Made by a program: the position numbers and the translations under genes. This document shows positions 7,713 through 51,769 of a DNA stretch of 64,000 nucleotides, one piece after another. Under the pieces are notes generated by a model. That model made no database searches. It saw only the letters and a list, made by a program, of their open reading frames with translations, and had not been told where the DNA came from. Source of the DNA: a virus. Lineage: Duplodnaviria > Caudoviricetes. The stretch spans positions 36,246-100,245 of the IMG/VR virus record IMGVR_UViG_3300047561_001243. The stretch is one strand, 5' to 3'. Position 1 is the first letter of the stretch. Each line of letters opens with the position of its first letter.

Positions 7713-8773
7713 TGAAAACATCAGGAGCGTTACTAAAAGCAATTAACAGTATTAATAAGAAGTTAGGCGATGACACAATTGTTAAAGCTTCTGATGTTCG
7801 TAAAGACGTGGCAGCTCGTTTTCCAACAGGTTCGTTAGCACTAGATTGCGCTCTTGGTGGCGGTTGGCCAGTAAATCAATGGCATGAATTAGTTGGAGAA
7901 GCCAGTAACGGTAAGACAGCTATTGCTTTAAAAACTATTGCAGCTAATCAAAAGCGAGACCCCGATTTCACCACCGTGTGGGTAGCAGCTGAACAATGGG
8001 TGCCATCATATGCAGAAATGTGTGGGGTAGATACTTCCCGTGTATACGTCATAGCAGATAACAGACTAGAGGAGGCTTTAGATGCCGTTGTTGAAATCGT
8101 TCAAACCAAGGATGTGGATTGCATTGTTGTTGATAGCCTTCCTGCCCTCGTTCCTAACGCAGAAGATGAGAAAGAAATGGGCGAAGCAACGGTAGGTCGT
8201 GCCGCCCTTGGACTTAATAAGTTTTGGAGAAAGATTGGTAAGGCGTCACGTAGAAGCTTGGTTCATGAAGAGAGACCATTTATTGGCCTCATGGTCAACC
8301 AGTGGCGTTCAAAGATTGGGGCATATGGAGACCCTAGAACAACCCCTGGAGGCCAAGGCAAAGACTATGCCTATTTCACACGTTTAGAGATTAAACGCGA
8401 TGACTGGATTAAACAGGGCACAGGTTCTGACGCCCCAAAGGTTGGGCAAACCATCAAAGTTAGAGTGTTAAAGAACAAGACAACAGCACCTCAACAGGTA
8501 GCCATGTTGGACTTTTATTTTTCAAACACAGAGAGATTTGATGCTGGAGATTTTGATTCAGCTAAAGAAATTTTGGCGCTAGGTATTATCAACAAAGTCA
8601 TTGTCCGAGCAGGCGCTTACTATCGGTATGCCGAGCGTCAATGGATGGGGCAAGATGCTATGCTTGCGTCATTGAGGGAAGAAATTGACCTCAAAGAGAC
8701 ACTGGAGAAGGACGTTCTAAACAGCGTTCTGTTGAGCTCAAAGTATGTTGCTGATTCTTCCGATGAAGAGTAA
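7712..8773 (+). CDS. recA: RecA recombinase
   Basis: TGSLALDCALGGG, GEASNGKT Walker A, IVVDSLPAL Walker B, NQWR, TTPGG, KNKT. Confidence 0.95.
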   Translation: MKTSGALLKAINSINKKLGDDTIVKASDVRKDVAARFPTGSLALDCALGGGWPVNQWHELVGEASNGKTAIALKTIAANQKRDPDFTTVWVAAEQWVPSYAEMCGVDTSRVYVIADNRLEEALDAVVEIVQTKDVDCIVVDSLPALVPNAEDEKEMGEATVGRAALGLNKFWRKIGKASRRSLVHEERPFIGLMVNQWRSKIGAYGDPRTTPGGQGKDYAYFTRLEIKRDDWIKQGTGSDAPKVGQTIKVRVLKNKTTAPQQVAMLDFYFSNTERFDAGDFDSAKEILALGIINKVIVRAGAYYRYAERQWMGQDAMLASLREEIDLKETLEKDVLNSVLLSSKYVADSSDEE

Positions 8774-17578: not shown

Positions 17579-18037
17579 ATGGGTGTATTGATGTCAGTTG
17601 ATGGTGTACTGCGCAACCCTATTAATAACGCCCCAATCCGTGAAGGTTTTTATTTATACCACCTTTTAAAATCACAGACTAAAGTTGTATTTTTATGTGA
17701 TGACAGGGCATTTACGGATACTTTTTTACGGACAAATAAAGTTATTAACTTTGATGCAATTGAGTCCACAGAAGATTTAGCACCTGGGGAAGACGCAATG
17801 ATGCGATTAATCAAACGTCAAAGAGCCCAAGGTGCAGTTGAGTATGTAGTAACAGCCGACCTTTCCCTAGTTACACCCATGTTAGAGGCAGGTATAGCAG
17901 CTTTAGCATTTTGTATTCCAAGTTATTTAGACCATAAGTTTATGCCAGACAGCCGAGAAGGTAAAAAAACTTGGGGAGAAATAACCGCTGAGATTGAACG
18001 CCAACAAGACATGCTGGCACAGGATGGCCGTTTGTGA
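17579..18037 (+). CDS. HAD-superfamily-like protein (first catalytic Asp replaced)
   Basis: N-terminal VLMSVDGVLR resembles HAD motif I DxDG(V/T)L. Confidence 0.55.
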   Translation: MGVLMSVDGVLRNPINNAPIREGFYLYHLLKSQTKVVFLCDDRAFTDTFLRTNKVINFDAIESTEDLAPGEDAMMRLIKRQRAQGAVEYVVTADLSLVTPMLEAGIAALAFCIPSYLDHKFMPDSREGKKTWGEITAEIERQQDMLAQDGRL

Positions 18038-19491
18038 GGCTGATTTACCTAGGAGCTGAGGTCCCATCTAATAGAGTTATCCTTGAAGAAGCTGGTGCTA
18101 CCTATATGGGAGTCAGCTATCACCGTTTAGTAAAGCGGGGATTGCCAAAGACAAAAGCGTATTTATTAGAAAACTACTTTAATAATGCCACCAGCATATT
18201 TGTTCATGCTGGCGTTCCAAAACACGCCAAAATGACACAGGATGAACTAACCGCGTTTGCCGCTGATTACGAAGAATTTATCATAGAGAACATACACAGG
18301 ATTACCCTGTTTACAGAGTTCGACCACCCAGGACTAAGTACAGATTTTATACAGAACCAGCGAAAAACCGTTTGGGCTGGAATGCCTCCATCTAAGTTCT
18401 TGCCCGTATGGCAAAGCGCTACAGGGCTTAACGGGTTAAAACAATTAGTCAATAGCTATCTAGATATTGGTATTCGTGGAGAAGATATAGAGGAACAGAC
18501 CAGCCTTGCAGGGATAGTACAATCCAACATCCAACAACACGGTTCTAGATTCCATGCCATAGGCTGTGCTAAACCCGACAACTTACGAAGTGTTAAGGTC
18601 GAAACCGCTAGCAGTATGGCGTGGCTATCACCCATGATGCGAGGCGAAACCATTGTGTGGGACGGTGGCAAAATAGTTCGATACCCAAGCAAAATGAAAG
18701 AGCAAGCTCGTCCTAGATACAAAGCGGTGTACGACAAAGCTGGGTTAGACTACGACAAGATAATTGAAGACGACGCTAAAGAAGTATCCAAGTTAGCAAT
18801 ATGGTCATACGACCAGTTAGAGTTAAGGTTGATGATGACTGGAAATAACGGGAACATATCAGATATGAACGAGTGGGATGAAGTGGAGCAAAGTGGGGAA
18901 ACTACCCCCGCTGTATCTGATAGGAGTGGGGTGCCGATGCGGAAAGTTGAGCCACGAAATCCTGACGAAATGGGCAACTTACCAGTGTTTGGATACGCCC
19001 TAGATACCACGATAAGTAACGAAGGAGTCATTGAAGATGTCACTACAATCCATTCGCAAAGTAGTAGTTTGCGCCAGTGTAATACTTGTTTCGTTGCAAG
19101 TAATTGCCCAGCTTATAAGGTAGATAGCGCATGTGCATTTAAGTTACCAGTAGAAGTAAAGACTAAAGAACAACTAAAGAGTTTGATTAATGCAGTGATT
19201 GAAATGCAGGGTCAACGCGTTGCTTTTATGCGATTTGCAGAGGAAATCAACGGTGGATATGCAGACCCTAACGTTTCGCAAGAGATTGATAGGCTGTTTA
19301 AACTTATAAAAGTAACTAAAGAATTAGACGATTCACGCGAGTTTATTCGTATGACCGTGGAGCGACAAGGAGGCGCTGGTGTGCTAAGTTCCATCTTCGG
19401 AGACAAAGCACAAGCGCTTAGAGAACTACCAGATGGTGGTCTAAATGAAGAGCAAACTACCAAAATTATTAAGCAGGCAACAGAAGAATAA
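18034..19491 (+). CDS. tRNA-guanine transglycosylase (TGT/DpdA)-like fold fused to a Cys4 domain
   Basis: FLPVW, RFHAIG, ETASSMAW..PMMRG follow the phage TGT-like pattern; CNTCFVASNCP...C in the C-terminal part. Confidence 0.45.
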   Translation: MRLIYLGAEVPSNRVILEEAGATYMGVSYHRLVKRGLPKTKAYLLENYFNNATSIFVHAGVPKHAKMTQDELTAFAADYEEFIIENIHRITLFTEFDHPGLSTDFIQNQRKTVWAGMPPSKFLPVWQSATGLNGLKQLVNSYLDIGIRGEDIEEQTSLAGIVQSNIQQHGSRFHAIGCAKPDNLRSVKVETASSMAWLSPMMRGETIVWDGGKIVRYPSKMKEQARPRYKAVYDKAGLDYDKIIEDDAKEVSKLAIWSYDQLELRLMMTGNNGNISDMNEWDEVEQSGETTPAVSDRSGVPMRKVEPRNPDEMGNLPVFGYALDTTISNEGVIEDVTTIHSQSSSLRQCNTCFVASNCPAYKVDSACAFKLPVEVKTKEQLKSLINAVIEMQGQRVAFMRFAEEINGGYADPNVSQEIDRLFKLIKVTKELDDSREFIRMTVERQGGAGVLSSIFGDKAQALRELPDGGLNEEQTTKIIKQATEE

Positions 19492-21653: not shown

Positions 21654-22216
21654 TTTATCCAAACTCTAACAGTGAAGCTGGTCAGGAATCATTTGTTCTG
21701 ACCAGCCTTCACGGTAAGCGCAATGGTTTCTACGTTGAAGTAGGAGCCTTTCATTCTAAGATAACTAGTAATACTTACTTGCTAGAAAAAGAATTTGATT
21801 GGAAAGGGGTTGCATTTGAAATTCTCCCCGACTGCGTTGCTGAATACAATGCCAATCGTGGTAACCCATGTATTGAAACAGACGCCACAACTTTTAATTA
21901 CTTAGCGTATTTTCAAGCTAACAACGTCCCAAAGCGTATAGACTATTTGCAATTAGATATTGAGCCAGCAAGTAATACCCTTCTAGCACTAAAACAATTG
22001 CCTTTGCAAGACTACCGTTTTAATGTAATAACTTTTGAACATGACCTTTACTACTCTCCCAACAACCTTGCCATCAAAGTAGAGCAACAAGAAATACTAA
22101 AAAGTTATGGATACAAACTTGCTGCCGATAATGTTCAAGTAATAGTTGCTGGTTACCCGCCTAGGGAATTTGAAGACTGGTGGCTTGACCCTACCTACAA
22201 TAATTACAGTAGTTAG
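21650..22216 (+). CDS. FkbM-family SAM-dependent methyltransferase
   Basis: SEAGQE..., FYVEVGA, SNTYLLE, IDYLQLDIE, ITFEHD, EDWW. Confidence 0.8.
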   Translation: MIYPNSNSEAGQESFVLTSLHGKRNGFYVEVGAFHSKITSNTYLLEKEFDWKGVAFEILPDCVAEYNANRGNPCIETDATTFNYLAYFQANNVPKRIDYLQLDIEPASNTLLALKQLPLQDYRFNVITFEHDLYYSPNNLAIKVEQQEILKSYGYKLAADNVQVIVAGYPPREFEDWWLDPTYNNYSS

Positions 22217-22342
22217 GGACTCTTAAATTATCAGGATGGGTAATATATAATTTACCGCAATGATAACAAAGCACTTGCACGGTAGAGCTATCTCCCCACT
22301 GCATTTCTGCAAAATACATGGGCCAACGAAACTTAATTTTTC

Positions 22343-23044
22343 TCATTTATAAATTTTCCTTTGTCTTCGTGAGGAGTAATGACCCCAAAACACTGTAGAT
22401 AATCTTGCTTTATCATTCATAATCTTTTCTTCTTCTTCTCCGCCAATAACAATAGATTTCCAATTGTCTCGCTTGACTGGAAACACTTGAAACATGGCAG
22501 TTCCTTTAGGGATAATGCCAGTGAAATCTTCTCTAATCATAAACGGTGCATTAGCATCTGTTTTTAATATGTCTGTATCAACATAGCCAGTCAATGTCTG
22601 TATAGGTAAATCAGGATGTCCGTATGGGTGAGTGAACACTGAGGAATATCCTTTTGGAGTTCTTATAATCCAACCATGTTGAAACTTAAATACTTGTTTT
22701 GCAAACCCTGGAGGAAAATCAAAATGAGAAATTTGAGCAACATCCCACTCCGCCCAGATATTTGCTTCTTCTGGCATGTTCATAGTTTGCAATATCTTTT
22801 TTCCATTTGGCCCATCGGTTACCATAATGTCTGCCCAAAGCTCCACTATGTAACCTAACGCATAAGAATCAAAGATTGGAGCACACGACTTCACCGTTGC
22901 AACAGGATGTTTCAATCCTTCAAGGTTTGCATACTTACTTATACTCTTATAGTTCTCATTCATTACTTTGATGGCAGACTTGGGTTTGTGCGCTACCGCA
23001 CCAATGTATTTGTTGGTAGCACTAAAAATTATCTTTTTGTACAT
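22343..23044 (-). CDS. Conserved phage protein (DUF6065-like), paralog of 45187-45909
   Basis: CAPIFD..GY, TPKGYS..FTHP, GYVDTD, PF.I...F.G.IPKGT...Q..P.KR..W shared with the paralog. Confidence 0.65.
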   Translation of the reverse strand: MYKKIIFSATNKYIGAVAHKPKSAIKVMNENYKSISKYANLEGLKHPVATVKSCAPIFDSYALGYIVELWADIMVTDGPNGKKILQTMNMPEEANIWAEWDVAQISHFDFPPGFAKQVFKFQHGWIIRTPKGYSSVFTHPYGHPDLPIQTLTGYVDTDILKTDANAPFMIREDFTGIIPKGTAMFQVFPVKRDNWKSIVIGGEEEEKIMNDKARLSTVFWGHYSSRRQRKIYK

Positions 23045-23391
23045 TCTCTTTTACCCAATCTTCTAGCCAATCAACTAAGTCTTCTACCTCAACACTTTTG
23101 CCAAACTCTTCAACCAAGTCCCCGTATAGATAATCATCAATTACATATACAGGCAAGCTATTAATCGTCATCGAAGTCATCATCATCATCTATCCATTCA
23201 TCAGGGTCTACACTGGGGCTTGGATTGCCCCAATCGGGGTTGGGAACAATAGGTTCAAACCCGCTCATCAAAACCCCTCAGTCTCCTGTTTTCTCGTTGA
23301 AGGTAGACATTCTCTCTCCAAAACAAGCACATGACAGTTACAGAGCCACCAAGGGCTATAAGAATAGCCAGCAGGTCACCAGTTGTAAGTA

Positions 23392-24117
23392 TCATGCGTC
23401 TACTCTTACCTCTGAGTAACCAGTAACAGTGTTGTTATCTTCCGTTACTTCCCACTTAGGGCGCTTGGCAGATAGCAATACGGCTTTCTTCTTTGCCTTT
23501 GGTAGCGACTTCCATGCTGATTTGTGCGCCACAAAAATACTGCCTTCGGCATCTTTCTGAGTAAAGCTTAGAAGCCATGCACCACCGTCTTCAAGGTTCT
23601 TGTCGATAATGATGTGATTGAACATAGATTTCTTTCTAGCCATTGTATTACTCCTCTATTTGGTTTCCGTTTTCGTCTTGGTAAGTAACATAGTTATCGC
23701 TTCCAAAGTCCTCAATAACCCAGTCTTGAATAAACTCTAATACATCCTTTATCGTTGGTTCGCTTTCAGGTTCCCACGCTATCATTTCTTGAACGATTTG
23801 TTCAACATCGTATGATACTACGCGCATGACATTTATTTCTTTAGGCAACGCGGTTTGGGTTGGTTCTATCTGTGCCATGGCGCTTCCCCACTTTCGATTA
23901 CCTGTTTTGCTATGTCATTGACCGTTGGTTCAGGCACATCTTCTTTGCACTTGTGATGGTTGTCGATACCTGTTTCGATAAGGTCTCCACACCAACTGCA
24001 CAATGGTATTTCTCTAATTGTCATCGTTGCTCTCCATGTCATCGTTGCTCTCTTTGAAGTCGTCCTTGCATGAAGCACACCATTTACCTTCGGCATACTC
24101 CTTCTCGTTGCTCTCAC
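23392..24117 (-). CDS. Three small hypothetical genes (23392-23643, 23648-23878, 23866-24117)
   Basis: Contiguous minus-strand ORFs; starts uncertain. Confidence 0.5.
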
Positions 24118-24135
24118 ATATTTCGCATAGTTCCA

Positions 24136-24798
24136 TCACGCACCAGCTTTCTCAGTATTGTTATCTACCGCTTTGGCTTCTTCTTCGCAGTTTGGACATC
24201 CATACTCATCACTATTCCAATCATCTTTAGGATAAGTGGCAAAATCAGTATCACACTGATTACAGCGCATTTCATAGAAGCGGATAGTTTCGCTCGTTCC
24301 TGCTTTGTAGACTTCTTCCCCACCCCAGCCACCTTCCTCTTCATAATCGTTGTTGATAACTACATTGGGATACTGTCGTGATAGTTCTAGCAACACTTGG
24401 TAAGGCTGACCCCACGCAGTATCGAATCGGTAATAGAGACGGTTATCTTCCTCATCTTGTAGCGATGTATCTGAGTCACCAGTGTTATCAGGACGGGCAA
24501 CATCCCATTTAGTTCCCCAGTTGCGAACATTCCAGTTATACCAGTTGTTCTCTACCTGCATACCAGCACTGTCACAGACTGAATCGTAATCATCGAGGAT
24601 TGAATCATCGGGTTTGATGATGTTCCAAAACGCGAACACAGGACTGTTATAGGTTGATACTACTTTCTCATCTTGCTTTGTTTCCATGTTCCAACGCATA
24701 TGAGTCCTGCTAAATGGTTGGTTGAGTTGTGCTTTTATCTTTGCAATATCTTCGGGACTTCCGTCGATATTGACTCCATTGAATACCCAGTTAGGCAT
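24136..24798 (-). CDS. DUF1281/Api92-like ferredoxin-fold protein
   Basis: MPNWVFN, WYNWNVRNWGTKWD, YRFDTAW..P, YEEEG motifs. Confidence 0.75.
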   Translation of the reverse strand: MPNWVFNGVNIDGSPEDIAKIKAQLNQPFSRTHMRWNMETKQDEKVVSTYNSPVFAFWNIIKPDDSILDDYDSVCDSAGMQVENNWYNWNVRNWGTKWDVARPDNTGDSDTSLQDEEDNRLYYRFDTAWGQPYQVLLELSRQYPNVVINNDYEEEGGWGGEEVYKAGTSETIRFYEMRCNQCDTDFATYPKDDWNSDEYGCPNCEEEAKAVDNNTEKAGA

Positions 24799-25047
24799 TT
24801 GTTTCCCCTTTTCTTTTGTCCGTTCCTTGTTTAGATATTCTTGCTAGGGGCAGGAAAGGACGGAATCCCCTAGCAAGAATCTTTGTTATCTATATAGATA
24901 AAGCTTTCTCGTTGTTGATGTATTCGCATGTCTCGCATTGAAAGGGTGCGCCATTTTTTATTGGTTCTTTCCAACGCTCTCCACAATCAGCACATGCATA
25001 CTGGTATGGATAGCAGACTAGGCAGGTATCTGCACCACAGCCGTAAG

Positions 25048-26709
25048 TCATCTCTCACCTCTTATGTGCATAATGCGGTCAATCTCTGTATAAACAAACG
25101 AGTAACCGTCTAGCAATCCTTCTAAGTAATGAAAGTTTGAGTCAGCCCCGTCGCCGTCATCTATTGCGCACTGCGCTTGATACATTCGGTTCTTCATCTC
25201 TCCATAGATAAGCGCAAGGGTAGAGATATCTGTATTGGTAATGAGGTCGTTGTTTATCATGCAACCACCTCTTCGCTAATCCATTTACAGACTTCTCCTT
25301 CATAGATATCTACATCAGTAAGGTTGGCAATCGCTTTGAGCCATTGGTCATCAACCTCCATAACAATACGGTGAACAGTCATTACTTTCCCCCTTCATAC
25401 TCTCGTTGGATATCTACATAGGTATCTTTGTCATCTAAAAGCATTTCTACAAAGTCCACAATGACATCAGGGACATTGGTAGCAGGATAGGCTTTCTCAT
25501 CTGTCATCAAGTAATACTCAGTCGCTTCGAGTTCGCTAACTATATTGTTACCGTCCTCATACTCTTCGTATTCACCTTGTAGCAAGATTCTCCACTCATG
25601 TCCAAGGTCGTCCTTAGTCCAGTAATACATCGCTGGCTTGGTATCAGTCATTACCTTCCCTCCCAGTATCTAACTATCGTGGTAAGTGTGGTGTGTAGGT
25701 GGCAGTCACAATCATCTGAGGACTCCCAATGCCCGTCAAAGTGTTCGAGGTTATCTTCATAGATAAGGGTGACGAGTTCATCTATTGTGTAAGGCTTATA
25801 GTTATCCAGCTTGGTATCGGTCATTCTTCACTCGCCATAATCATTTGACCGCAACGCTGGCAGTAATGGAACGCACCGCCCCAGTCGTCGCGTGGGTTTC
25901 CCATGTCGTCGTGGCAAGGTTCGCCTTTAGAGTTGCACGCATAAAAGCCGTCCATGTGTGGTTGATTACCGCACAGGCAAACTATGTCCTCTTTTGCTTC
26001 TTGGAATATCAGTGCTGTTATCATTCGGCGCTTTCCAATACTGGTAACGAGTGAGTAATTCCCTGTGTATGGAAGTAGTAAGTAAGGCGGTCAAGTGCCT
26101 CATCTAAATCTTGGCGTATTTCGTGGTAGTCCATACCTAGTTTGCCATAGTCCACAGAAGAAGCATTGGCACGCAGGAAGGCTAAATCACTGCCACAAGT
26201 GACGAGGGTGTCAAGGATTTCAACAGCCTCAGTTTGCCCGTCTAGGTAAGCACGGCAGAGAAAGGCGTATTTGGCGTCGCTCATGCCTGTCCTGCTAACT
26301 TCTGACAGTATGTCAGGATAGATAAACAGGCTGACTGGTAGAGCGAGAAGAGATAGCCGTCGATAGGAATGAAGAGGTAATCAGGCTGGGTATCTTGTTC
26401 AGCCTTGACCTCGCAAAACTGGTGGGCTTCCTCCATGAGGTCACTACTTGCCCATGCGGTGAAGCGTGTCATGGCTTCCCATTTTTCTTTGTAATAAGGG
26501 AAGTTGCTATCAGGATTGCTAACTTGCTCGAATGTGTCAGTGCAGTCTTCCATGGCAAGAATGTCGTCATGGTCGGATAACTGTCTTGCTACATCTGCCA
26601 CAACCTCAGCCCAATGGGTGATGTTGTTAGGTCGCTCGGCGTTGATGTCGTCGGGTAGAGTCATGGTGTTGCTTTTTGCTAGTTCTAGTAATACCGCTTT
26701 GGTATCCAT
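25048..26709 (-). CDS. Run of small acidic early-type hypothetical genes (25048-25260, 25382-25651, 25821-26024, 26021-26284, 26281-26709)
   Basis: Coupled minus-strand ORFs with purine-rich SD sequences. Confidence 0.55.
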
Positions 26710-26740
26710 GTGTTCCGTCCTTTCCAAGGTCGTTGAGAGC

Positions 26741-26810
26741 AAACTACTCCCCTGTCAAGCCGAAAGCAACCCGATTAGCCCCTTTTCTCACTTTGTTATC
26801 AAATCGTTAT
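26741..26810 (-). promoter_or_regulatory. Sigma-A-like promoter TTGCTT-N17-TAGTTT with upstream GTTAT-N6-GTTAT repeat
   Basis: -35 at 26764-26769, -10 at 26741-26746, direct repeat 26795-26810. Confidence 0.5.
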
Positions 26811-26829
26811 AAAGCTTGAATACCTACAT

Positions 26830-27299
26830 AGGCAACCTGCCCCCCGTAAAAATCGGGCGCAAAAGCCAATTTCACCTGTTTATTCCCTGTGTAGAGAGAG
26901 AGTAAGAGAGAGAGATAGAAAGATAATCGTCCCTCTCCTGCCAGCCTCTCTATGCCCCTGTGAAGGCTTGCCAGTGGCATGCAGTATCTCTCTAGGCATG
27001 GTGTGGCTACCTGTATAGGTATGGCTCTCCTATCAGATAGCAGGACGGGGCAGGGGTCAGCCAATCGGGCCGTCCCCCTACTGCCCCCCTGCCGTGTGCA
27101 TGCAGTAGCCAAGTGGCTTTATCTCTTAGTCTCTTTATCTCTTTGTCGACAATTGCTAGTGCTTAGCCGCCTTGCTAACTCTTGGCAGAGGTGGCCCATG
27201 CCCGCACTGGCAACCTCTGGCCAGTCGTGGCCTGTGATAGCAGCACGGCTAAGGGCGCCGAATCTCTTCGAGATAGCAGGATAGGTAAGTGCTGGCTCT
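26830..27299 (-). ncRNA. Candidate structured non-coding RNA or cis-acting locus (about 470 nt)
   Basis: No credible ORF, nested inverted repeats, directly downstream of the cassette-1 promoter. Confidence 0.35.
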
Positions 27300-27305
27300 C
27301 AAATC

Positions 27306-27397
27306 TCTCTACCACACTGGCATCCACAAGTCAATAGGCTAGTGATAACTCTTTGGTAACAAAGTTATCCACAGGCTGTGGATAAACCTGTGGAAAA
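27306..27397 (-). promoter_or_regulatory. Cassette 1: three DnaA boxes + direct repeat + promoter TTGACT-N17-TAGAGA
   Basis: TTATCCACA 27365, TGTGGATAA 27377, TGTGGAAAA 27389; ATAAC-N6-GTAAC 27345-27360. Confidence 0.8.
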
Positions 27398-27478
27398 GTT
27401 TGGGTTGGGCTTTGATTGGGATAGCAGGGAGGAGCCCTTAGCTATCATTAGCAATATTAATCAAAGCCCAACCCAAAC
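27398..27478. repeat. Palindromic element with 20-bp perfect arms
   Basis: GTTTGGGTTGGGCTTTGATT ... AATCAAAGCCCAACCCAAAC. Confidence 0.85.
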
Positions 27479-27526
27479 AATCGGCTCATCTCATGCCAAT
27501 ACCAATACTGGTAAGCATGAAGGCAC

Positions 27527-27565
27527 AAAAAAATGGGGACCAGCCAGGTGGCCAGTCCCCATTTT
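27527..27565 (-). terminator. Intrinsic terminator
   Basis: ATGGGGAC/GTCCCCAT stem with a T-run on the minus strand, after gene 27586-27906. Confidence 0.65.
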
Positions 27566-27585
27566 CAAGCTAGGAGCGAAAGGGA

Positions 27586-28763
27586 TTAACTCTCGTCGCT
27601 TATAGTCCGCAGCTCGTTGCCAAGCGTGCGAAATTCTTCTGCTTCATACAGCATAACCGTACGGTCTTCTTCATCCAACAGGTCATATATTAATGATGAC
27701 TGCGCGATGTCGACTACTTCCTTGGCCAGGCTCATGAATCTATTCATGAACACAGCACAGTTATCGTCATCTGCAGGCCCAGCGCTAGCCAGTTCCCACA
27801 GTTCTATAACTTCAGGTACGACGTTGTCAGCCACACGTCCAAATGCAATTTGGATGTGCTCTTCCATTGCCATTGCATTGATAGATAGCGGTTTAGTTAT
27901 CACCAAGACACCTCCGCTGAATCAACTGTGTAGTCACTGATATCCATCTCGCATTCAGTGGAGTCTACCGTGCACTCAAATGCGTCGTCAAACTCACGGT
28001 TCCAACCAACAGGCGCCATAACTTTGACAGTACAGGTAAATGTAACCTGCAGTTCATACTCTTTGATAAGACTGATATCAAGCATTTCTGCAATTGCAGT
28101 GAAGTGCTCTTCTGTTTCTTCATCATAGTTCTCACCAATGTACTTCTCTACCGCTGCATGCTTATGCTGGTAATCACGCAACTGTGTGAGATAGCGTTCG
28201 TTGTTAGATGCCAGTGCTGGTATCTGCTTGTTGAGTTCGTCTAACTGATTTTGTAACTGTAATTCCTTATCTGTTTTGATAAGTTCCATCTGTTGTTACC
28301 CCTTTTCTAAGATAGCGGGGCAGGTATCTCCTGCCCCGCCAACTACTTATAGATACTTCGCTATGGATTTCATAGTCGTAGCATTTACTACTTCCTCATC
28401 TGTCATACGCAGGATAGATAAGGCGTTTGTGATGTCCTCACAGATTTCATCATAGGCATACTTAGCCATAGTAGTAAAGTCTTTCTCAGGTTCTTTTGGC
28501 AACTTGTCCTCAGTAACAATGATGTCGTAGTCAATGTTTAGAGTGTTGTTCCAAGAACGATAGTTTGTGCGTAGATTTGTTGCGTCTTTTACGTTATCCA
28601 TAGCAAACTTAGTAACTTGTTCGTTCCAAGCCTTCTTTAGTTTGTCAAACTCTGCCTCGTTTTGTTCTTGTGAAGCATAGTCATTTTTTACTTTGGCTAA
28701 CTTATTTTCTAAAGCCGTGATGACTTTATGTGTTGCTACCTTTACCGAAATGGCTCTTGCCAT
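27586..28763 (-). CDS. Three hypothetical genes (27586-27906, 27900-28289, 28347-28763)
   Basis: Minus-strand ORFs; AAGGGG SD before the 28289 and 28763 starts. Confidence 0.65.
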
Positions 28764-28792
28764 AATCGTTACCCCTTTCCTTAGGTAAGAGA

Positions 28793-28860
28793 AGTATCTC
28801 TTATCTCTCACCTAAGGACTAGAGCCCAACGATAACAATTAGATAACGAAGTTATCCACA
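28793..28860 (-). promoter_or_regulatory. Cassette 2: DnaA box + direct repeat + promoter TAGTCC-N17-GATACT
   Basis: TTATCCACA 28852-28860 (overlaps the upstream gene's stop); ATAAC-N6-ATAAC 28832-28847. Confidence 0.75.
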
Positions 28861-29406
28861 GCTTTCTTTGGCAGATTTGATAGCGTCCTCTATACTGCTA
28901 AACCCCCACGATGAATCTTGTACTTCGAGGTGGCCGCAGGATAGGCAAGCTTTCTTTATTAGATAACCGCAGACATCCCCGCGTAGGTATCGGTCATATT
29001 CTTCCACCTCATGACCGAGGCCAGTAACTGCAGTAAGTTCATCTGTAACACCGTAGGAAGCAAGTGCATCCTTAGTAGTATAGATAAACCCTACTTGGCC
29101 ACTGTCCCACTGTGCATGCTGGGCCAGTCCGTGCCAGGCGCCGATACGGATACTAATACCGCTATGGTCGTAGAGGTACAACGGCTTGATATGAATTCCG
29201 CCATTCTCTTCGATAGCAGTGTAGAGTTCTTCCCATGACTCGTAGTCTTCACTACGATAGGAAGTCTTATCGCCTAACTCATAGCGCTTATGGAAGCAAA
29301 CCATGGTGCCTATATTGTCCCACTCTCGTGGGTCCATAGGGCTCTCGTCATTCACTATCTCTATAACTAGGCCGTTATGCTCGACCTTGTCTAACACGTA
29401 ACTCAT
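28852..29406 (-). CDS. Conserved phage/plasmid hypothetical protein
   Basis: DPREWDN, LYLYDHSGI, WDSGQVGFIY, EVEEYD.YL.GD..GY, DS.WGF motifs. Confidence 0.7.
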   Translation of the reverse strand: MSYVLDKVEHNGLVIEIVNDESPMDPREWDNIGTMVCFHKRYELGDKTSYRSEDYESWEELYTAIEENGGIHIKPLYLYDHSGISIRIGAWHGLAQHAQWDSGQVGFIYTTKDALASYGVTDELTAVTGLGHEVEEYDRYLRGDVCGYLIKKACLSCGHLEVQDSSWGFSSIEDAIKSAKESCG

Positions 29407-29433
29407 ATGCATCCCTTTCTCTCGTGTAGCGCA

Positions 29434-29513
29434 ATTGTCGCAGAGTCTCCCCCGCTGGTATATAGCTCGAATGTCACGGTTGTATAACAATGTTATCCAC
29501 AGCCTGTGGAAAA
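29434..29513 (-). promoter_or_regulatory. Cassette 3: two DnaA boxes + direct repeat + promoter TATACC-N17-GACAAT
   Basis: TTATCCACA 29493, TGTGGAAAA 29505; GTCAC-N6-ATAAC 29473-29488. Confidence 0.75.
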
Positions 29514-29584
29514 GTTTGGGTCGGGCTTAGGGCTCGCTTGGCTATACGACTACGTTGCCAGCCAGCCCTAAGCCCGACCCAAAC
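29514..29584. repeat. Palindromic element with 21-bp perfect arms
   Basis: GTTTGGGTCGGGCTTAGGGCT ... AGCCCTAAGCCCGACCCAAAC. Confidence 0.85.
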
Positions 29585-29588
29585 AAAG

Positions 29589-29641
29589 TTATCCACAGGA
29601 TGTGTATAACCCTGTGGATAACTCCGTTATAGATTTGTTAC
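29589..29641 (+). promoter_or_regulatory. Three DnaA boxes at 12-bp period + inverted copy of the direct repeat
   Basis: TTATCCACA 29589, TGTGTATAA 29601, TGTGGATAA 29613; GTTAT-N6-GTTAC 29626-29641. Confidence 0.8.
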
Positions 29642-29844
29642 AGTACGCTTACGTACTTCATAGCAGTGCGGAGAACGTTGTCGTAATCGCCACTCATTGA
29701 CTCGGCGTAGTACGCATCCACTTCCTCCTTGGAAGCGCCAGCCTTTTTGATTGCACTTCCAACTGATGCCATGATTGACATTGCATTACCATCGTTGCCA
29801 GTTAGCTGAACTTCGATGTCGAACTTAGGTGTGGTTGTATCCAC
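29638..29844 (-). CDS. Conserved small phage protein
   Basis: LTGNDGNAMSIM...SGDYDNVL motif. Confidence 0.7.
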   Translation of the reverse strand: MDTTTPKFDIEVQLTGNDGNAMSIMASVGSAIKKAGASKEEVDAYYAESMSGDYDNVLRTAMKYVSVL

Positions 29845-29911
29845 GGTGGTCCCTTTCTGTTAGGTGTTTGGGTTGAGAGGGGGGATTGCTCCCCCCTCCC
29901 TAGCAGGATGG

Positions 29912-30916
29912 CTAAGCCAGAGCCTTGACTGCTTGGAAGATTCGATTCTTCTCAGCATTTACTTGTGAGTCGAAGCCACTTGCTGCTGCAGTGTTGGCTT
30001 CGCTGCTTCCGCGTCGCGCTTGGCGGAAGTAATCAACGCGCTCAGTAAGTGCATTGAATGTGCCCCACGCAGTGCCCTTGATGTTGGCATTGGTAGGTGA
30101 TGTGAAGTACAGGTCATTCAAGAGGTCAATCTTGTTTTCCCATACTGTGAGTGCCCCGCTCTTCTTGGTCTCATCGACCGAAGGCTTTGGATAGAGAGCA
30201 GTGATGATGTCATTGAACTTCTTGGCATCGACCGCTGTCTCGAAGAGGGACTGTGCTTCCTTTTGGAAGTCGTCCATGTAACTGAAGGTAAGGCTGAGTG
30301 CCTTGCGAGCATCCTCAACTCTATCTTTCACCGTCAAGGTGTGGCGCATCTTGAATGATTGCTTCTTAGAATCAAGAGCAATGTTCAAGGTGTTTTGGCA
30401 AACAACTCTCACTGGTGTGATTGCTGCTTGGATAGCAGCACTGCCATCATGTGATGTGTGGACCAGAAGGTAAGTAACAGTTTTATCTGCTGCTCCCTTA
30501 GGGTCGATGATGAACTCTCGTGGTACAACGAGAGAGCCGAAGACCTGACGGCCATCTTTGATTGAGCCAGCGGATTCCCACTTGGCACCACCATCGAGGA
30601 TATTGTCACCGAAGGTGAACAGGTCCTCGTTTTGGTATACGCGGTAGCGCTCGCCAACTACGGAGAGCACATCAGTGCCTAGTCCGAATGGACTAGTGCG
30701 GACCACGAGTTGGTGGTCAGTGTTGCGGTTGTAGCCCTCAGGTAGAGGTGCTGGTTCGAGACGGACGTCCCAGTTGTCGAGCTTGGCCAGTGCGAGCATC
30801 TGAGCCGTGGTGATATCTGTATCCTTATCGAATACAGTCCCAAGACCGTGCCACGCTGGTTCACTACGAAGTGCAAAGGCGGTTACGCCGTCTACACTCT
30901 CGAGATTGTGAGCCAT
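29912..30916 (-). CDS. DUF932-family phage/plasmid protein
   Basis: PAWHGLG, VGERY...QN, ESAGSIKDGR, TSHDGS, TPVRVVCQNTL, GTAWG.FNA.TE. Confidence 0.85.
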   Translation of the reverse strand: MAHNLESVDGVTAFALRSEPAWHGLGTVFDKDTDITTAQMLALAKLDNWDVRLEPAPLPEGYNRNTDHQLVVRTSPFGLGTDVLSVVGERYRVYQNEDLFTFGDNILDGGAKWESAGSIKDGRQVFGSLVVPREFIIDPKGAADKTVTYLLVHTSHDGSAAIQAAITPVRVVCQNTLNIALDSKKQSFKMRHTLTVKDRVEDARKALSLTFSYMDDFQKEAQSLFETAVDAKKFNDIITALYPKPSVDETKKSGALTVWENKIDLLNDLYFTSPTNANIKGTAWGTFNALTERVDYFRQARRGSSEANTAAASGFDSQVNAEKNRIFQAVKALA

Positions 30917-30970
30917 GATTTCCCCTTCTTTGAAGAATCATCTCAAAGAGGCTTTCTCTTTGATAGTGCA

Positions 30971-31038
30971 ACTCTATCGCATACCTATACGGGCAGCAAT
31001 GCCCCAAAGGTCACGTTTGTATAACGAAGTTATCCACA
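30971..31038 (-). promoter_or_regulatory. Cassette 4: DnaA box + direct repeat + promoter TTGCTG-N17-TAGAGT
   Basis: TTATCCACA 31030; GTCAC-N6-ATAAC 31010-31025. Confidence 0.8.
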
Positions 31039-31043
31039 GGCAA

Positions 31044-31111
31044 TGTTTGGGTTGGACATATGGCTAGGCGGCAAGGTATTCACCAGCCAGCCATATCATC
31101 CAACCCAAACA
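31044..31111. repeat. Palindromic element (13-bp outer arms plus inner ATATGGCT/AGCCATAT)
   Basis: TGTTTGGGTTGGA ... TCCAACCCAAACA. Confidence 0.8.
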
Positions 31112-31157
31112 AATCAGCCCCCGCATCTCTGCGGGGGCGTCTTTGTATTAGGGGCAC

Positions 31158-32987
31158 CTAATAGTTGTTGAGTATTGCTGCAACGATTGATTCTTCCTCA
31201 TCGTTTGCATAAGCTGCATACTCTTCAGCAACTTTATTGAATAGCATTGTGTAGGTGCGTTCGTGGTATTCCTTCACACGCTCATCCTTGAGGATAAGGT
31301 CTGAAGCATTTTCTAGTGCGATTAGCACCATCAGTAACTCTGTCTTGTTATCTATTTCCATTAGTCCTCCTCACATTCACATGGTTCATCAGGGTTGAAT
31401 GAACAGAACATGCAACCCATGTACTCGTCGCACTTTTTGCATGCGTATCGGAATTGGTGTTCATCACAGCAGACAAATAGCTCGTCCATGATTTTGTAGT
31501 ACTTGGTCTGGTCAAGGACTGGCATTACTCGTACTCCTCTGCTGCAACCTTGGCTGCGTACCCATTGGCACGCAGTGATGAGATGCCTAGCTTTTCTTTT
31601 TCATCTGCATAGATTGCATCGAACTCATCTTTGTGCAGATACATAAGTATTGCTTGAGCACGTGAGTATGCTTTCTGCGTAGCAGTGTTGCGTTGTTGTT
31701 GGTTCATGATGCCACCTTTGTATTAGCGCATGGATAGCAGGTCTTCTCAACCTCTACACCTAGACAGAATGCATCAATACCTGAGTAGATGATGTTTTCT
31801 GTGCTGTTACAGATTGTGCATTTCATTTGTTTCCCCCTTCAGGAAAGAAGCATTCGATTGATGATTTGAAACAGTAGTGGTCGCCAACCCAGTTGAGATG
31901 GTCGAGACCGATAGTTGCTAGTGTGAGAGTGCCACCGATTAGGGCTGTCCAGAAGACAACCCTAACCAATGTGCGGACTTGGTAATAGCGTGCGGTCCTC
32001 ATCGAGAGACCATCGCCTTGCCACGACGGAAGATGCGAGTGTGGCATTTGCCAGTTGGTTCGTAGAGATTGACTGTTGAGTATTCGTCAGCCATTCCGTG
32101 GTCTACGAATGATTGGAAGCTTTTTACTGCTTCCAGTGCGTCTGTGTAAGTGTGCTCCCAATGGCTTTCCTTGCCATCGTAGGAAGCAGTTACTTTGAAC
32201 TCGTATTGCGTATACATCTGTGCCCCTTCTGTTGTAGTTGTTTGGGTCGGCTAGCCGTCCCCCACCGAGCAGGGTTCTCACCCTGCCCGATAGGCAATCT
32301 CTAGTCGCGTGTGAACTCACTTATTTCGTTATGCTGTCCACACTTGGGGCAGTCATACTCAGTTGTGCGTTCCGTTCCGTGAGTCTCACTTTGTGTGTGA
32401 CCACCGTTGAAACCGTCCGATGTGTAACTTGTCTGCTCTGTGAGGCACTCGACCTCTCCGAGCCATCCACAATCACACTCGTGTTCCATAGTGTCGTTGA
32501 TGTGGTTGACGTGATGATTTGTAGAGATAGCGTCTGCTCCGTAGAGTGGTGCTCTAGTTGCATTAGATGGCATCTTCTTCTTCCCTCCATGTTGTCCACT
32601 TGATTGTGTTATCAGTGGTGATGAGTTGAATTGAATAGTTGCCGTTAGGCTTGCGGTCGATACGGATAGCGACACCCTGAACGCCTGAGCGTTGAGTGGT
32701 GATGAAGTCAAGCACCTTAGGAAGTGTTGCCATGCTTATGCCTCCACTTCTGTTGGAGGGTTGAGGCGAGCAAATACTTCAGCCTCAATCTGCTTGCGAG
32801 TGCGTGCCTCTGCGATTACTGGCAAGAGTGCATCTACAATTGCTTGTAGTTGGTCACCCATAGACCAATCGAAGATGGTGATTTCTAAACCATCAACGTC
32901 AATGCTAAGGTTGATGGTGTTGCCCGATACGTTCGCACTAGATGAAAACTCATCACCAGTGCGTGTGAATAGACTTACTGAAGCCAT
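31158..32987 (-). CDS. Run of small early-type hypothetical genes (31158-31361, 31525-31707, 31823-32002 with a TM helix, 31999-32217, Zn-ribbon ORF ending at 32301, 32736-32987)
   Basis: Coupled minus-strand ORFs, several with AAGGGG SD. Confidence 0.55.
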
Positions 32988-33037
32988 TTGGCTACCCCTT
33001 TACGGAATTGGAGGCGGTGTTGCCTTCCAATAAGATA

Positions 33038-33128
33038 AAGATAGTCTATTTATTACCAAACCATAAGAGCCCAAATGTCACAGTTTGATAACGAAGTTAT
33101 CCACAGCCTGCTCCAAAAGTTATCCACA
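33038..33128 (-). promoter_or_regulatory. Cassette 5: two DnaA boxes + direct repeat + promoter TTATGG-N17-TATCTT
   Basis: TTATCCACA 33097 and 33120; GTCAC-N6-ATAAC 33077-33092. Confidence 0.8.
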
Positions 33129-50997: not shown

Positions 50998-51288
50998 TTA
51001 AGCTATCTTTAATCGTCTCTTTAACTTCTTTCGCTCTACATCCGTTGTAGCCCCCCAGATGCCCAATACGGGCTCGTGAAGGGCATACTCTAGGCACGGA
51101 GTTTGAAACTGACAGCTCCTACATATAGCAAGGGCTGCTTTAGTTATCGAACGTGGTGTTCCTATCTCTGGAAAAAATATATCGGGGTCTGTTTGTGAAC
51201 ACGGTTGAGTGCCATCAAATCCAGGCGCATTAGTACCACCCCTTGCGTTGCCAAAACTTCCATGCGTTACATGCGCCCGACGGCTCAT
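50998..51288 (-). CDS. whiB: Second WhiB-family transcription factor (start uncertain)
   Basis: PCSQTDPDIFFP...AICRSCQFQTPCL...GIWGATT. Confidence 0.9.
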   Translation of the reverse strand: MSRRAHVTHGSFGNARGGTNAPGFDGTQPCSQTDPDIFFPEIGTPRSITKAALAICRSCQFQTPCLEYALHEPVLGIWGATTDVERKKLKRRLKIA

Positions 51289-51769
51289 TTGTGCTCCCAT
51301 ATCTTTTTTCGATGTAGCGAAGGCCATATTTTATTTGCAGGGAAGCAACAGGGGTTTTTTCTACTTTGTAGTTACCCCATGTTGAAGGCATAAATTGTGC
51401 AATACCGTAGGCACCAGAAGACTTATTTTTAGCCTTAGGGTTAAAATGACTTTCATGTTGCCAGATATTGCGTAAACAGGTCCACTCTTTCATAGACCAG
51501 TCTTTTGTATATACGGTTAAAAATGCTAGCGCTTCAGCGTCAAAGTATTTGACGTTGTCACTTGCCAAGGCTTTCTTAGCTTCCGACTTGGTAGTCGTTA
51601 CCTTTAAATAGGTGAGCGATACAGTAACGGGTTTTTCATTGACCACCGCTGGTTTAACTGTTACCGCGTAAGCTGGAGCGACTAGGTGGGCTGCAAAAAT
51701 AAACCCAGCCATAAGCGCTGCTCCAAACTTCTTCAAATCAATAGATAAATTGATTCTGATATTAAGCAT
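51230..51769 (-). CDS. Secreted lytic transglycosylase (SLT/lysozyme-like)
   Basis: Signal peptide; CL..IW..ES.FNPKA.N.SSGAYGIAQF...YIEKRYG...C.AW.FW...GWY. Confidence 0.85.
   Translation of the reverse strand: MLNIRINLSIDLKKFGAALMAGFIFAAHLVAPAYAVTVKPAVVNEKPVTVSLTYLKVTTTKSEAKKALASDNVKYFDAEALAFLTVYTKDWSMKEWTCLRNIWQHESHFNPKAKNKSSGAYGIAQFMPSTWGNYKVEKTPVASLQIKYGLRYIEKRYGSTNEPSGACNAWKFWQRKGWY

Follow-up and report, generated by a model that had tools for sequence, protein, structure and literature searches.

A composite DNA module, in which a DnaA box is joined to a GTTAY-type direct repeat, is carried by the phage analysed here and by more than 100 other uncultured phages, and is undescribed. 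On balance, we lean towards the reading that its copies form a portable module controlling, from upstream, early promoters read by the main RNA polymerase of the host, with a host regulator on the repeat and host DnaA on the box. An earlier note had described five such cassettes; its observation was confirmed, and its interpretation was partly supported.

The source was IMGVR_UViG_3300047561_001243 (full record 100,245 bp), of which a stretch of 64,000 nt (the window) was analysed. Judged by its TerL (54% identical to the TerL of Streptomyces phage BRock) and an encoded WhiB protein, this is an uncultured actinophage of ~100 kb. The recognisable members of its leftward early-type block encode DUF932, zinc-ribbon and DUF1281_C proteins. 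The block is divergent from the plus-strand genes and tRNAs, which run from 33216 onward, and the cassettes are predicted to cut it into five transcription units.

Cassette anatomy and DnaA-box clusters

The five minus-strand cassettes (starts 33106, 31039, 29502, 28861 and 27374) aligned without gaps on the layout C-TGTGGATAA-C-N3-GTTAY-N6-GTKAY-N10-[-35]-N17-[-10], with the identical spacing and exactly the -35 and -10 hexamers claimed before (Table 1). A sixth module was found besides, giving six full modules (box plus repeat) in the window, one of them on the plus strand and without a promoter. For the pattern GTTAY..AA..GTKAY, the genome gave seven matches where 0.13 would be expected. 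Regarding the proposed sigma-A promoters, the fixed position was upheld, with the -10 at module position 64 in all five cassettes, but the hexamers agreed less well: strict actinobacterial TANNNT fits only two of the five, with A at position 2 in 5/5 and T at position 6 in 4/5. Module 6 mirrors cassette 3 on the other side of a palindrome and runs antisense into a gene, and no -10 was present at the usual offsets. The seventh repeat, which is box-less, likewise has no promoter behind it; its 21-mer is also present in a relative (L116). As these two copies lack promoters, the module can also serve simply as a binding site.

The window contains 10 copies of the perfect box TTATCCACA; 0.61 were expected, and shuffled sequences never gave more than 3. 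Nine of the ten copies lay within 27365-33128, and there were no others in the whole 100,245-bp record. A recount of TTWTNCACA boxes in this interval gave the same 12, nine of them perfect, as reported earlier. Additionally, cassettes 2, 3 and 5 are each closely preceded by a highly stable hairpin (RNA fold z between -7.9 and -10.6), and terminators lie ahead of cassettes 2 and 5.

Table 1. Features of the early-type block and its surroundings (window coordinates; promoters and targets are predicted)
Feature	Position	Strand	Details
Leftward early-type block	22191..32987	-	~35 small genes, mostly without known relatives
Extra perfect DnaA box	33120..33128	-	Same orientation as, and 23 bp upstream of, cassette-1 box
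Cassette 1	33038..33106	-	DnaA box 33097-33105; repeat 33077-33092 (GTTAT-N6-GTGAC); predicted driver of nine-small-gene run, first ATG 32987
Cassette 1 promoter	-35 TTATGG 33061-33066; -10 TATCTT 33038-33043	-	
Hairpin/palindrome H2	31045..31110	.	GTTTGGGTTGG...CCAACCCAAAC; 6 nt before cassette 2; directly after terminator 31117-31138 (together -65.7 kcal/mol, z -9.8)
Cassette 2	30971..31039	-	DnaA box 31030-31038; repeat 31010-31025; targets DUF932 gene (29912-30916) and 68-aa gene (29638-29844)
Cassette 2 promoter	-35 TTGCTG 30994-30999; -10 TAGAGT 30971-30976	-	
Module 6 (complete)	29612..29641	+	CTGTGGATAAC-TCC-GTTAT-N6-GTTAC
Box triplet, 3-bp gaps	29589..29621	.	TTATCCACA 29589, TGTGTATAA 29601, TGTGGATAA 29613; beyond the palindrome from cassette 3; last box part of module 6
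Hairpin/palindrome H3	29514..29584	.	21-bp perfect stem; z -10.6; DnaA boxes and modules 3 and 6 on its two sides
Box TGTGGAAAA	29505..29513	+	3 bp from cassette-3 box, head-to-head
Cassette 3	29434..29502	-	DnaA box 29493-29501; repeat 29473-29488; target 184-aa gene (28852-29406), phrog_6186
Cassette 3 promoter	-35 TATACC; -10 GACAAT 29434-29439	-	
Cassette 4	28793..28861	-	DnaA box 28852-28860; repeat 28832-28847 (GTTAT-N6-GTTAT); overlaps 3' end of upstream gene including stop codon; targets three genes, 28763 down to 27586
Cassette 4 promoter	-35 TAGTCC; -10 GATACT 28793-28798	-	
Hairpin/palindrome H5	27398..27478	.	20-bp stem; z -7.9; after terminator 27538-27553; abuts three boxes of cassette 5
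Two extra boxes by cassette 5	TGTGGATAA 27377-27385; TGTGGAAAA 27389-27397	+	Each 3 bp from its neighbour; head-to-head with cassette-5 box
Cassette 5	27306..27374	-	DnaA box 27365-27373; repeat 27345-27360; faces 470-nt ORF-free stretch, then gene run 26709 down to 22191
Cassette 5 promoter	Best -35 TTGACT 27329-27334; -10 TAGAGA 27306-27311	-	
Seventh repeat, box-less	26795..26810	+	GTTATCAAATCGTTAT

Spread across phages and link to promoters

The composite TGTGGATAAC-N3-GTTAY-N6-GTKAY was found, with its spacing kept, in at least 117 IMG/VR viral contigs (35-53% GC). Since these viral scans demanded an exact box and an exact repeat, conservation inside their letters is imposed, except in the unbiased set below. 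Among cultured phages there was no meaningful match, and bacterial genomes gave 15 scattered matches in 596 Gb, which is chance level, so the composite was not taken over from host origins. At least 47 unrelated gene families lie downstream of the module, with the start codon 100-130 nt from the box for most of them, and TANNNT peaked at module positions 63/64 (45/98), 73-75 (20) and 83-85 (17), a one-turn ladder. These results indicate that the module is promoter-linked, with the -10 at helically phased offsets, in agreement with the promoter-linked cassettes of an early-type actinophage block that had been described. Many cassette-bearing phages have a single box at a single promoter; repeat arrays reach five units (L126). 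In another relative (G034), an 8.5-kb 'repeat' considered as a terminal repeat was rejected as a wrap-around assembly, because its end falls inside a gene.

The unbiased set comprised 35 unique related small phages, found via a neighbouring protein and not via the motif. CGTTAYC-N4-CGTTAYC was present in all 35, and the -10 lay 48 nt beyond it in 24/35. A DnaA box was found in only 5/35, and in the box-poor lineage the stretch upstream of the repeat appears protein-coding. The direct repeat is the core element of the module. As the repeat is universal and the box optional in this set, DnaA would be an accessory input and not the obligatory gate of early transcription that the earlier note had envisaged.

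Likely binders of the box and the repeat

Within 60 bp of a perfect box, we found 100 one-mismatch variants, of which 58 alter position 5 and 21 position 3, while none alters position 4, 7 or 8; the background was flat. The same variants occur at the cassette box position itself, and the pattern is the known DnaA degeneracy TTWTNCACA. Extra boxes lay 11/12, 20-24, 32-34, 41-44, 53-56 and 64-66 bp upstream, forming a helical ladder. In Microbacteriaceae genomes, used as a stand-in for the phage's own host, TGTGGATAAC was enriched over control and clustered at dnaA/oriC. Given the DnaA-type degeneracy, the helical ladder and the same 10-mer at Microbacteriaceae oriC, the earlier identification of the cassette boxes as true DnaA boxes, predicted to be bound by host DnaA, is well supported at the level of sequence.

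The M. tuberculosis MtrA site reads c-G-T/A-n-A-C/T-c twice, 4 nt apart (PMC6265350), the S. coelicolor MtrA site GT(G/A)ACC-N5-GT(G/T)AC (PMC5650626) and the GlnR site GTnAC-n6-GTnAC (PMC10704036). The phage repeat, with two units at an 11-bp period and the core GTnA(C/T), has this published shape and, as in OmpR/PhoB-type promoters of Actinobacteria (MtrA, GlnR, PhoP), lies upstream of the -35, where activation is expected. Similarly, M. tuberculosis oriC holds MtrA boxes among DnaA boxes in one locus (PMC4285127). However, 70-78% of copies have T at position 5 of the repeat, where MtrA/GlnR sites prefer C, and the composite is only at chance level in bacteria. In five small Microbacteriaceae genomes, again standing in for the host, GTTAY-N6-GTTAY was not enriched over control and the repeat was absent from the oriC regions. 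Of 29 genomes, only two had it ahead of divIVA, which MtrA targets in mycobacteria, and no host regulon matched it in the genomes examined. The earlier assignment to MtrA/GlnR thus holds for site shape and not for enrichment, oriC or divIVA; it remains a resemblance.

Alternative explanations, related systems and proposed mechanism

The earlier note had named a phage-encoded binder as the case against its reading, and a whole-genome search for DnaA domain IV, OmpR-type wHTH, HTH_3 and sigma region 4 found none. Such a protein might bind the repeat, and perhaps the box, making the module an operator through which early promoters are shut off or autoregulated after an early or middle protein has built up, as with Cro or phi29 p4. 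We consider this rather unlikely. Most early genes are small and without family, so any of their products could be a DNA-binding protein that escaped recognition; candidate host genomes show no enrichment of the repeat, the composite is phage-specific, promoter-less copies are present, and a 156-aa protein (3641-4111) has a weak MerR-like HTH; MerR-like BldC reportedly binds direct repeats (PMC5859096). However, no DNA-binding family was found among the early genes, and no protein family was common to cassette-bearing loci or to this phage and the 17-kb phages. The module also precedes the first-expressed genes, its site upstream of the -35 is unusual for simple repression, and it is improbable that a non-homologous protein should reproduce the complete DnaA degeneracy profile of the box. 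Among described phage systems, the nearest analogue is the set of paired DnaA boxes in the first-step-transfer (injection-stop) region of T5 (Davison, bioRxiv 10.1101/866236, citing Heusterspreute 1987). There, too, consensus and near-consensus boxes lie in the first-expressed small-gene region of a large lytic siphovirus, in T5-like phages as eight boxes with 3-bp pairs on inverted repeats; the region is judged non-origin, with host DnaA as presumed binder. The boxes might act mainly on DNA or DnaA, by anchoring or pausing the incoming genome on membrane-bound DnaA, as proposed for that T5 region, or by soaking up DnaA and blocking host initiation, with promoter closeness secondary. The exact 3-bp pairs tied to large palindromes (27365-27478, 29493-29621), the promoter-less module and the 12 boxes per genome copy would fit this. 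It is nevertheless improbable: the 3-bp box-repeat gap and the helical phase to the -10 are fixed across unrelated lineages and downstream genes, many phages have just one box at one promoter, and the T5 model is itself an unproven proposal. T5 boxes, moreover, occupy a long untranslated repeat region without a fixed offset before each promoter, the GTTAY direct repeat is missing from T5, T5-like hosts are enterobacteria, and terminal repeats are not demonstrable for the present record. The composite itself is undescribed, and the DnaA-box idea is less unprecedented than the earlier note assumed, because T5-like pre-early boxes were already described.

An intrinsic promoter element (phased A-tracts or a UP-like contact of polymerase alpha) acting without a separate regulator is very unlikely. 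A-rich tails, CAAA (~-56) and CAAAA (~-45), sit at UP subsite positions, and in the unbiased set promoter linkage of the repeat is 100%, at constant spacing; yet the invariant letters are the GTTA cores and not A-tracts, arrays have up to five units, promoter-less copies exist in this phage, and a strict pentamer repeat is not known for UP elements. Replication origins, with iterons and DnaA boxes as in P1 and plasmid origins, are scarcely plausible. DnaA boxes do adjoin short direct repeats, the locus 29473-29641 is mirror-symmetric around its palindrome, and the 17-kb relatives lack a polymerase and carry a single repeat locus. However, there are six or seven copies in this one genome, each in register with a -10 and a start codon, the 11-bp unit is present only twice, neither an AT-rich unwinding stretch nor a DnaA-trio run was found beside the clusters, and genes for the phage's own helicase, PolA and RecA lie elsewhere in the genome.

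DnaA is also a transcription factor, as in dnaA autoregulation, nrdAB, B. subtilis sda and the stimulation of lambda pR; high-affinity boxes stand by a housekeeping-sigma promoter, and expression follows DnaA level or nucleotide state. The cassettes share this placement, but the known cases concern host genes or, for one phage promoter, boxes located after the start, whereas the box described here is coupled, at 3 bp, to a second site, and the pair recurs as a module in many phages. PeSL (promoter-early stem-loop) elements, reportedly described by Arbiol et al. in 2010 as mobile regulatory cassettes of T4-type phages, are likewise short conserved early-promoter units with a stem-loop before many unrelated small early genes, and seemingly mobile; unlike them, the present module contains predicted host transcription-factor sites, and its upstream binding part is conserved while the core promoter varies. 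Lambda CII activates via direct repeats TTGC-N6-TTGC, a tandem repeat whose gap is likewise 6 nt and which adjoins the -35 of a weak promoter. In the CII case, however, the repeats lie on either side of the -35 and their reader is a phage protein, whereas here they end 10 nt before it and no phage candidate reader was found.

In the favoured reading of a host-read control module, the core would be the tandem repeat (C/T)GTTAYC-N4-(C/T)GTKAY, at roughly -61 to -46 relative to the predicted start, serving as docking site for a dimeric activator, most likely a host OmpR/PhoB-family response regulator of MtrA/GlnR type. The second part would be the perfect DnaA box 3 bp upstream on the same helix face, often followed by further boxes at ~11-bp steps, on which host DnaA may provide a second input that aids or hinders activator and polymerase. 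The 3-bp-spaced box pairs that flank the large palindromes may, in addition, retain DnaA on the incoming DNA, in line with the proposal for T5. With host DnaA and the activator as inputs, early-gene output would therefore depend on host proteins present at injection, one of which reports replication status.

Boxes and cassettes of the early block

Five minus-strand stretches (cassettes 1 to 5) aligned without gaps and shared the layout C-TGTGGATAA-C-N3-GTTAY-N6-GTKAY-N10-hexamer-N17-hexamer, in which a DnaA box and a direct repeat 3 bp further on form a module, followed by a -35/-10 pair. These equally spaced cassettes carried the same hexamers as in the earlier note, whose inventory was correct for the five minus-strand copies but incomplete, having missed a sixth module on the plus strand, a repeat without a box and three hairpins. 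The two direct repeats GTTAY-N6-GTKAY, with an 11-bp period, were present in 6/6 modules, and GTTAY..AA..GTKAY occurred seven times in the genome vs 0.13 expected. The perfect box TTATCCACA occurred ten times in the window (expected 0.61; maximum 3 in 100 shuffles); nine of these copies lay within 27365-33128, and the whole 100,245-bp record, in which the window spans 36246-100245, contained no further copy. Together with three variants, the nine perfect boxes gave the 12 matches to TTWTNCACA previously counted in this interval, and the gaps between neighbouring boxes in the window were 3 bp.

Box specificity was analyzed in 1.77 Mb of phage loci. Among 100 one-mismatch variants within 60 bp of a perfect box, 58 differed at position 5 and 21 at position 3, and none at position 4, 7 or 8; beyond 500 bp from a perfect box, the variants were spread evenly over the positions. 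The DnaA degeneracy of Schaper and Messer, as quoted in bioRxiv 10.1101/866236, is TT(A/T)TNCACA. Measured from the cassette box, extra boxes lay at 11/12, 20-24, 32-34, 41-44, 53-56 and 64-66 bp, which corresponds to helical phasing, and the variant boxes TGTGTATAAC, TGTGGAAAAC and TGTGAATAAC occupied the cassette position where a perfect box sat one turn upstream. In 31 genomes of Microbacteriaceae, which are plausible hosts only, the 10-mer TGTGGATAAC was more frequent than its reversed control and clustered at dnaA/oriC beside the same variant boxes. DnaA domain IV (Bac_DnaA_C) was not found in the phage genome. The agreement of degeneracy, phasing and oriC usage argues that the boxes have DnaA specificity, as the earlier note had proposed, and these features together with the lack of a phage DnaA domain IV make host DnaA by far the most likely binder.

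A phage-encoded protein would be the alternative binder, and the earlier note had named it as an outcome against its reading; none emerged from family searches and locus comparison. Bac_DnaA_C, Trans_reg_C, HTH_3 and Sigma70_r4 gave no match in the phage genome, and HTH_17/MerR gave only a sub-threshold match to a 156-aa protein, the only lead to a phage-encoded binder. Pfam and PHROGs revealed no DNA-binding family among about 40 early and neighbouring proteins, and no single protein was shared by all cassette loci. Of the proteins at these loci, the one shared most widely (88 aa) adjoined a transglycosylase and had no Pfam match; by eye it resembled a small membrane or lysis protein.

Coordinates of features in the phage and in related viral or metagenome loci (L numbers)
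Feature	Position	Strand	Remarks
Cassettes 1 to 5, starts	33106, 31039, 29502, 28861, 27374	-	
Module 6, complete	29612-29641	+	No usable -10 behind; antisense into a 68-aa gene
Repeat without box	26795-26810	+	
Leftward block	22191-32987		About 35 genes, small and in most cases lacking known relatives; split into five units by the cassettes
ORF-free stretch behind cassette 5	26830-27300	-	No credible ORF; RNA fold z -3.0
Box-pair locus 1	27365-27397 (boxes), 27398-27478 (hairpin)		
Box-pair locus 2	29493-29513, 29589-29621 (boxes), 29514-29584 (hairpin)		Boxes around the hairpin
Third hairpin	31045-31110		
CCRACCCAAAC copies	23853-23863, 32240-32250, 37969, 42273, 48582, 50948, 60947		
WhiB-family protein	50998-51327	-	
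RecA homologue	7712-8773	+	
TGT/DpdA-like enzyme	18034-19491	+	
MerR-like protein, 156 aa	3641-4111	+	
Widely shared protein, 88 aa	51981-52247		
TGTCRG-N10-TANNNT, examples	L112:2074-2160, L116:797-880, L142, L121		
GGCGTGTCG-N-TTTGACAA	L142, L063, L077, L084, L116:760-780		
Short ORF, 34 codons	L139:7635-7736		

Promoter character and the tandem repeat

The proposed -10 hexamers in the window had A at position 2 in five of five cases and T at position 6 in four; the strict actinobacterial TANNNT fitted only two of the five, and a generic sigma-70 scan did not flag the window cassettes. A Shine-Dalgarno sequence and start codon followed the -10 at 30-55 nt in each cassette except cassette 5, which had the best -35 of the set (TTGACT) and faced 470 nt without an ORF. 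This stretch held CCTGCTATCT repeats and a long AG/TC-rich tract, matched no Rfam family, and may act as a long leader or be transcribed as a non-coding RNA.

Across phages, 99 distinct cassettes were compared. The first RBS-bearing gene mostly started 100-130 nt downstream of the box, and the downstream genes belonged to at least 47 unrelated families. TANNNT peaked at module positions 63/64 (45/98), 73-75 (20) and 83-85 (17), a ladder of one-helical-turn steps whose longer offsets stemmed largely from a core promoter of the form TGTCRG-N10-TANNNT, found after the module in 21/93 cassettes of other phage lineages. The published '-26 element' promoter of PafBC, which acts in the actinobacterial DNA-damage response, is tGTCgg(N10)tA(N3)T (PMC8635444), which this core promoter matches. 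No cassette of our phage was followed by a PafBC-type promoter; the sister-lineage phages that carry it may drive early genes via host PafBC. The promoter linkage, the helical -10 ladder and the variety of core promoters and genes indicate that the module acts as a face-of-the-helix upstream element joinable to different core promoters and genes. Its ties to start codons and to phased -10 elements across phages argue for real promoter cassettes, in line with the promoter claim of the earlier note.

A second conserved motif, GGCGTGTCG-N-TTTGACAA, which holds a TTGACA -35, was observed beside cassettes, upstream or downstream, in several related phages.

As the other viral scans had demanded exact box and repeat letters, an unbiased set of 35 relatives from a 17-kb phage lineage was gathered via the metallophosphoesterase encoded beside the module, with no motif imposed. 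The pattern (C/T)GTTAYC-N4-CGTTAYC-nAAA was present in 35/35 distinct intergenic regions, with a -10 at repeat start + 48 nt in 24 of them, whereas a DnaA box stood at the cassette position in only five. Complete 16-17-kb genomes of this lineage carried exactly one repeat each, and two further loci (L070 and L129) had the repeat without a box before good -35/-10 pairs. The tandem repeat looks like the constant feature of the promoter, with DnaA as an optional second input. Of the gating of early transcription by DnaA and MtrA that the earlier note proposed, the promoter cassettes and the DnaA-type boxes are supported, an obligatory role of DnaA is not.

In the unbiased relatives without a box, the DNA upstream of the repeat varied in a codon-like manner and could be read as a short ORF that begins before the preceding gene has ended. 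Third-codon variation ran up to and through the repeat in L139 and its counterpart in L214-L251, all of the 17-kb lineage, and the 34-codon ORF of L139 (MEGFARPDFGDEDVDNIVIV...) overlapped the metallophosphoesterase stop. In this lineage, one stretch of DNA seems to serve both as promoter element and as short coding frame.

The repeat has the shape of OmpR/PhoB-family sites. In its core, G, T and A were invariant, and at position 5, 70-78% of copies had T and 22-30% had C. Published motifs are c-G-T/A-n-A-C/T-c twice, 4 nt apart, for M. tuberculosis MtrA by ChIP-seq, which permits C/T (PMC6265350); (G/T)T(G/A)ACC-N5-GT(G/T)ACN for S. coelicolor MtrA (PMC5650626); (A/G)TAACAAT-N3-(A/G)TAACAAT for C. 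glutamicum MtrA (PMC3353115); and GTnAC-n6-GTnAC for GlnR (PMC10704036). At core position 5, the Streptomyces MtrA and GlnR motifs have C and the M. tuberculosis MtrA motif C/T, whereas the phage repeat has mostly T. In the M. tuberculosis oriC, MtrA boxes are interspersed with DnaA boxes (PMC4285127); the repeat was not found in the oriC regions of the Microbacteriaceae genomes examined. Nor was it enriched over control in five small Microbacteriaceae genomes, which may not be of the host clade, and it lay upstream of divIVA in 2/29 genomes. The few other intergenic matches were single, before unrelated rhodopsin, aminotransferase and msrB genes. A conserved TTGCTAGCGTTAG upstream of divIVA was rejected as a repeat, an extended -10 being the simpler reading. 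The MtrA/GlnR assignment of the earlier note is consistent with the site shape, but no link to a host regulon emerged. An MtrA/GlnR-type regulator is the best current candidate for the repeat binder, though less likely than not.

Palindromes, T5-like phages and the origin reading

Cassettes 2, 3 and 5 each had a very stable hairpin immediately upstream (RNA fold z -7.9 to -10.6), and intrinsic terminators preceded two of the three hairpins. At 27365-27478 and 29473-29641, the boxes were 3 bp apart, head-to-head or tandem, and abutted palindromes whose ends were inverted copies of CCRACCCAAAC. The order at 29473-29641 was mirrored, running from module 6 through three boxes, the palindrome and two boxes (of which the second is that of module 3) to the repeat of module 3.

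The 11-mer CCRACCCAAAC had 15 copies across the 100-kb genome; every copy followed the sense orientation of the genes around it, and some were inside coding regions. All three hairpins were inverted pairs of this 11-mer, with interiors that differed but were complementary. Candidate roles of the 11-mer are a Chi-like site, an RNA processing site or a nick site.

Among described systems, the first-step-transfer (injection-stop) region of T5-like phages comes closest: its eight DnaA boxes form pairs with 3-bp gaps on inverted repeats (bioRxiv 10.1101/866236), and the window likewise has 3-bp box pairs on inverted repeats. The author of that study judges the region not to be an origin, and proposes that incoming DNA is held on membrane-bound DnaA (bioRxiv 10.1101/866236). 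At the box clusters of the window, a replication origin is very unlikely, and its hallmarks were absent: no 40-bp stretch above 78% AT lay beside the box clusters, except the cassette-1 promoter itself, and no runs of DnaA-trios were present near the boxes. The argument for placing the cassette block in a terminal repeat was dropped, because the 8.5-kb overlap between the ends of a 124.5-kb relative breaks off within a gene; the record of our phage has no end repeats.

Host, spread and meaning of the module

Our phage (about 100 kb, 44% GC) has genes for terminase and portal, three tRNAs, PolA, RecA, a helicase and ribonucleotide reductase, and also for a DpdA/TGT-like enzyme, a hint of 7-deazaguanine DNA modification. 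The terminase shared 54% identity with the terminases of Streptomyces phage BRock and its relatives, and a DUF932 protein about 53% with Streptomyces phage counterparts. These similarities and the WhiB-family protein point to an actinobacterial host, probably of low GC.

The exact composite TGTGGATAAC-N3-GTTAY-N6-GTKAY was present in at least 117 IMG/VR contigs (35-53% GC among the matches listed); 596 Gb of bacterial and archaeal genomes gave 15 scattered matches, approximately the chance expectation. Single-linkage clustering of the cassette loci merged everything into one and was uninformative. Among cultured phages (50,697 records), neither megablast with the region nor blastn with a single cassette returned anything meaningful, and the first 50 kb of BRock contained neither box nor repeat. 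A full-text literature search found no description of the composite, and both the composite and its spread among actinophages appear undescribed.

One of the 15 bacterial matches (L195) was a 1.5-kb contig in a Microbacteriaceae metagenome-assembled genome, on which a full cassette and three DnaA boxes were accompanied by repeated GTTTAAAC motifs and small phage-like genes. The contig probably stems from a phage or mobile element and was binned with that genome, which makes it a weak host clue.

The fusion of the module to PafBC-type promoters in sister lineages suggests that host-factor sites form a toolbox out of which phages piece together early promoters. A broader reading, which we consider rather unlikely as a whole, has lytic actinophages composing their first promoters of binding sites for host proteins that signal cell state: DnaA for replication licence, an MtrA-like response regulator for envelope and division status and, in sister lineages, PafBC for DNA damage, which is sensed as single-stranded DNA. 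Host physiology read at injection would then set early-gene output, while multiplying genomes would drain DnaA from the host origin.

The module is a concrete 40-bp object that is easily tested, and is common to more than 100 uncultured phages of an ecologically dominant, hard-to-culture bacterial group. It is a possible host-assignment marker for actinophage contigs and opens a new approach to the DnaA boxes of T5-like phages, which still lack an explanation. Binding by host DnaA and a response regulator would make it the first general design of phage early promoter wired to the host replication initiator.
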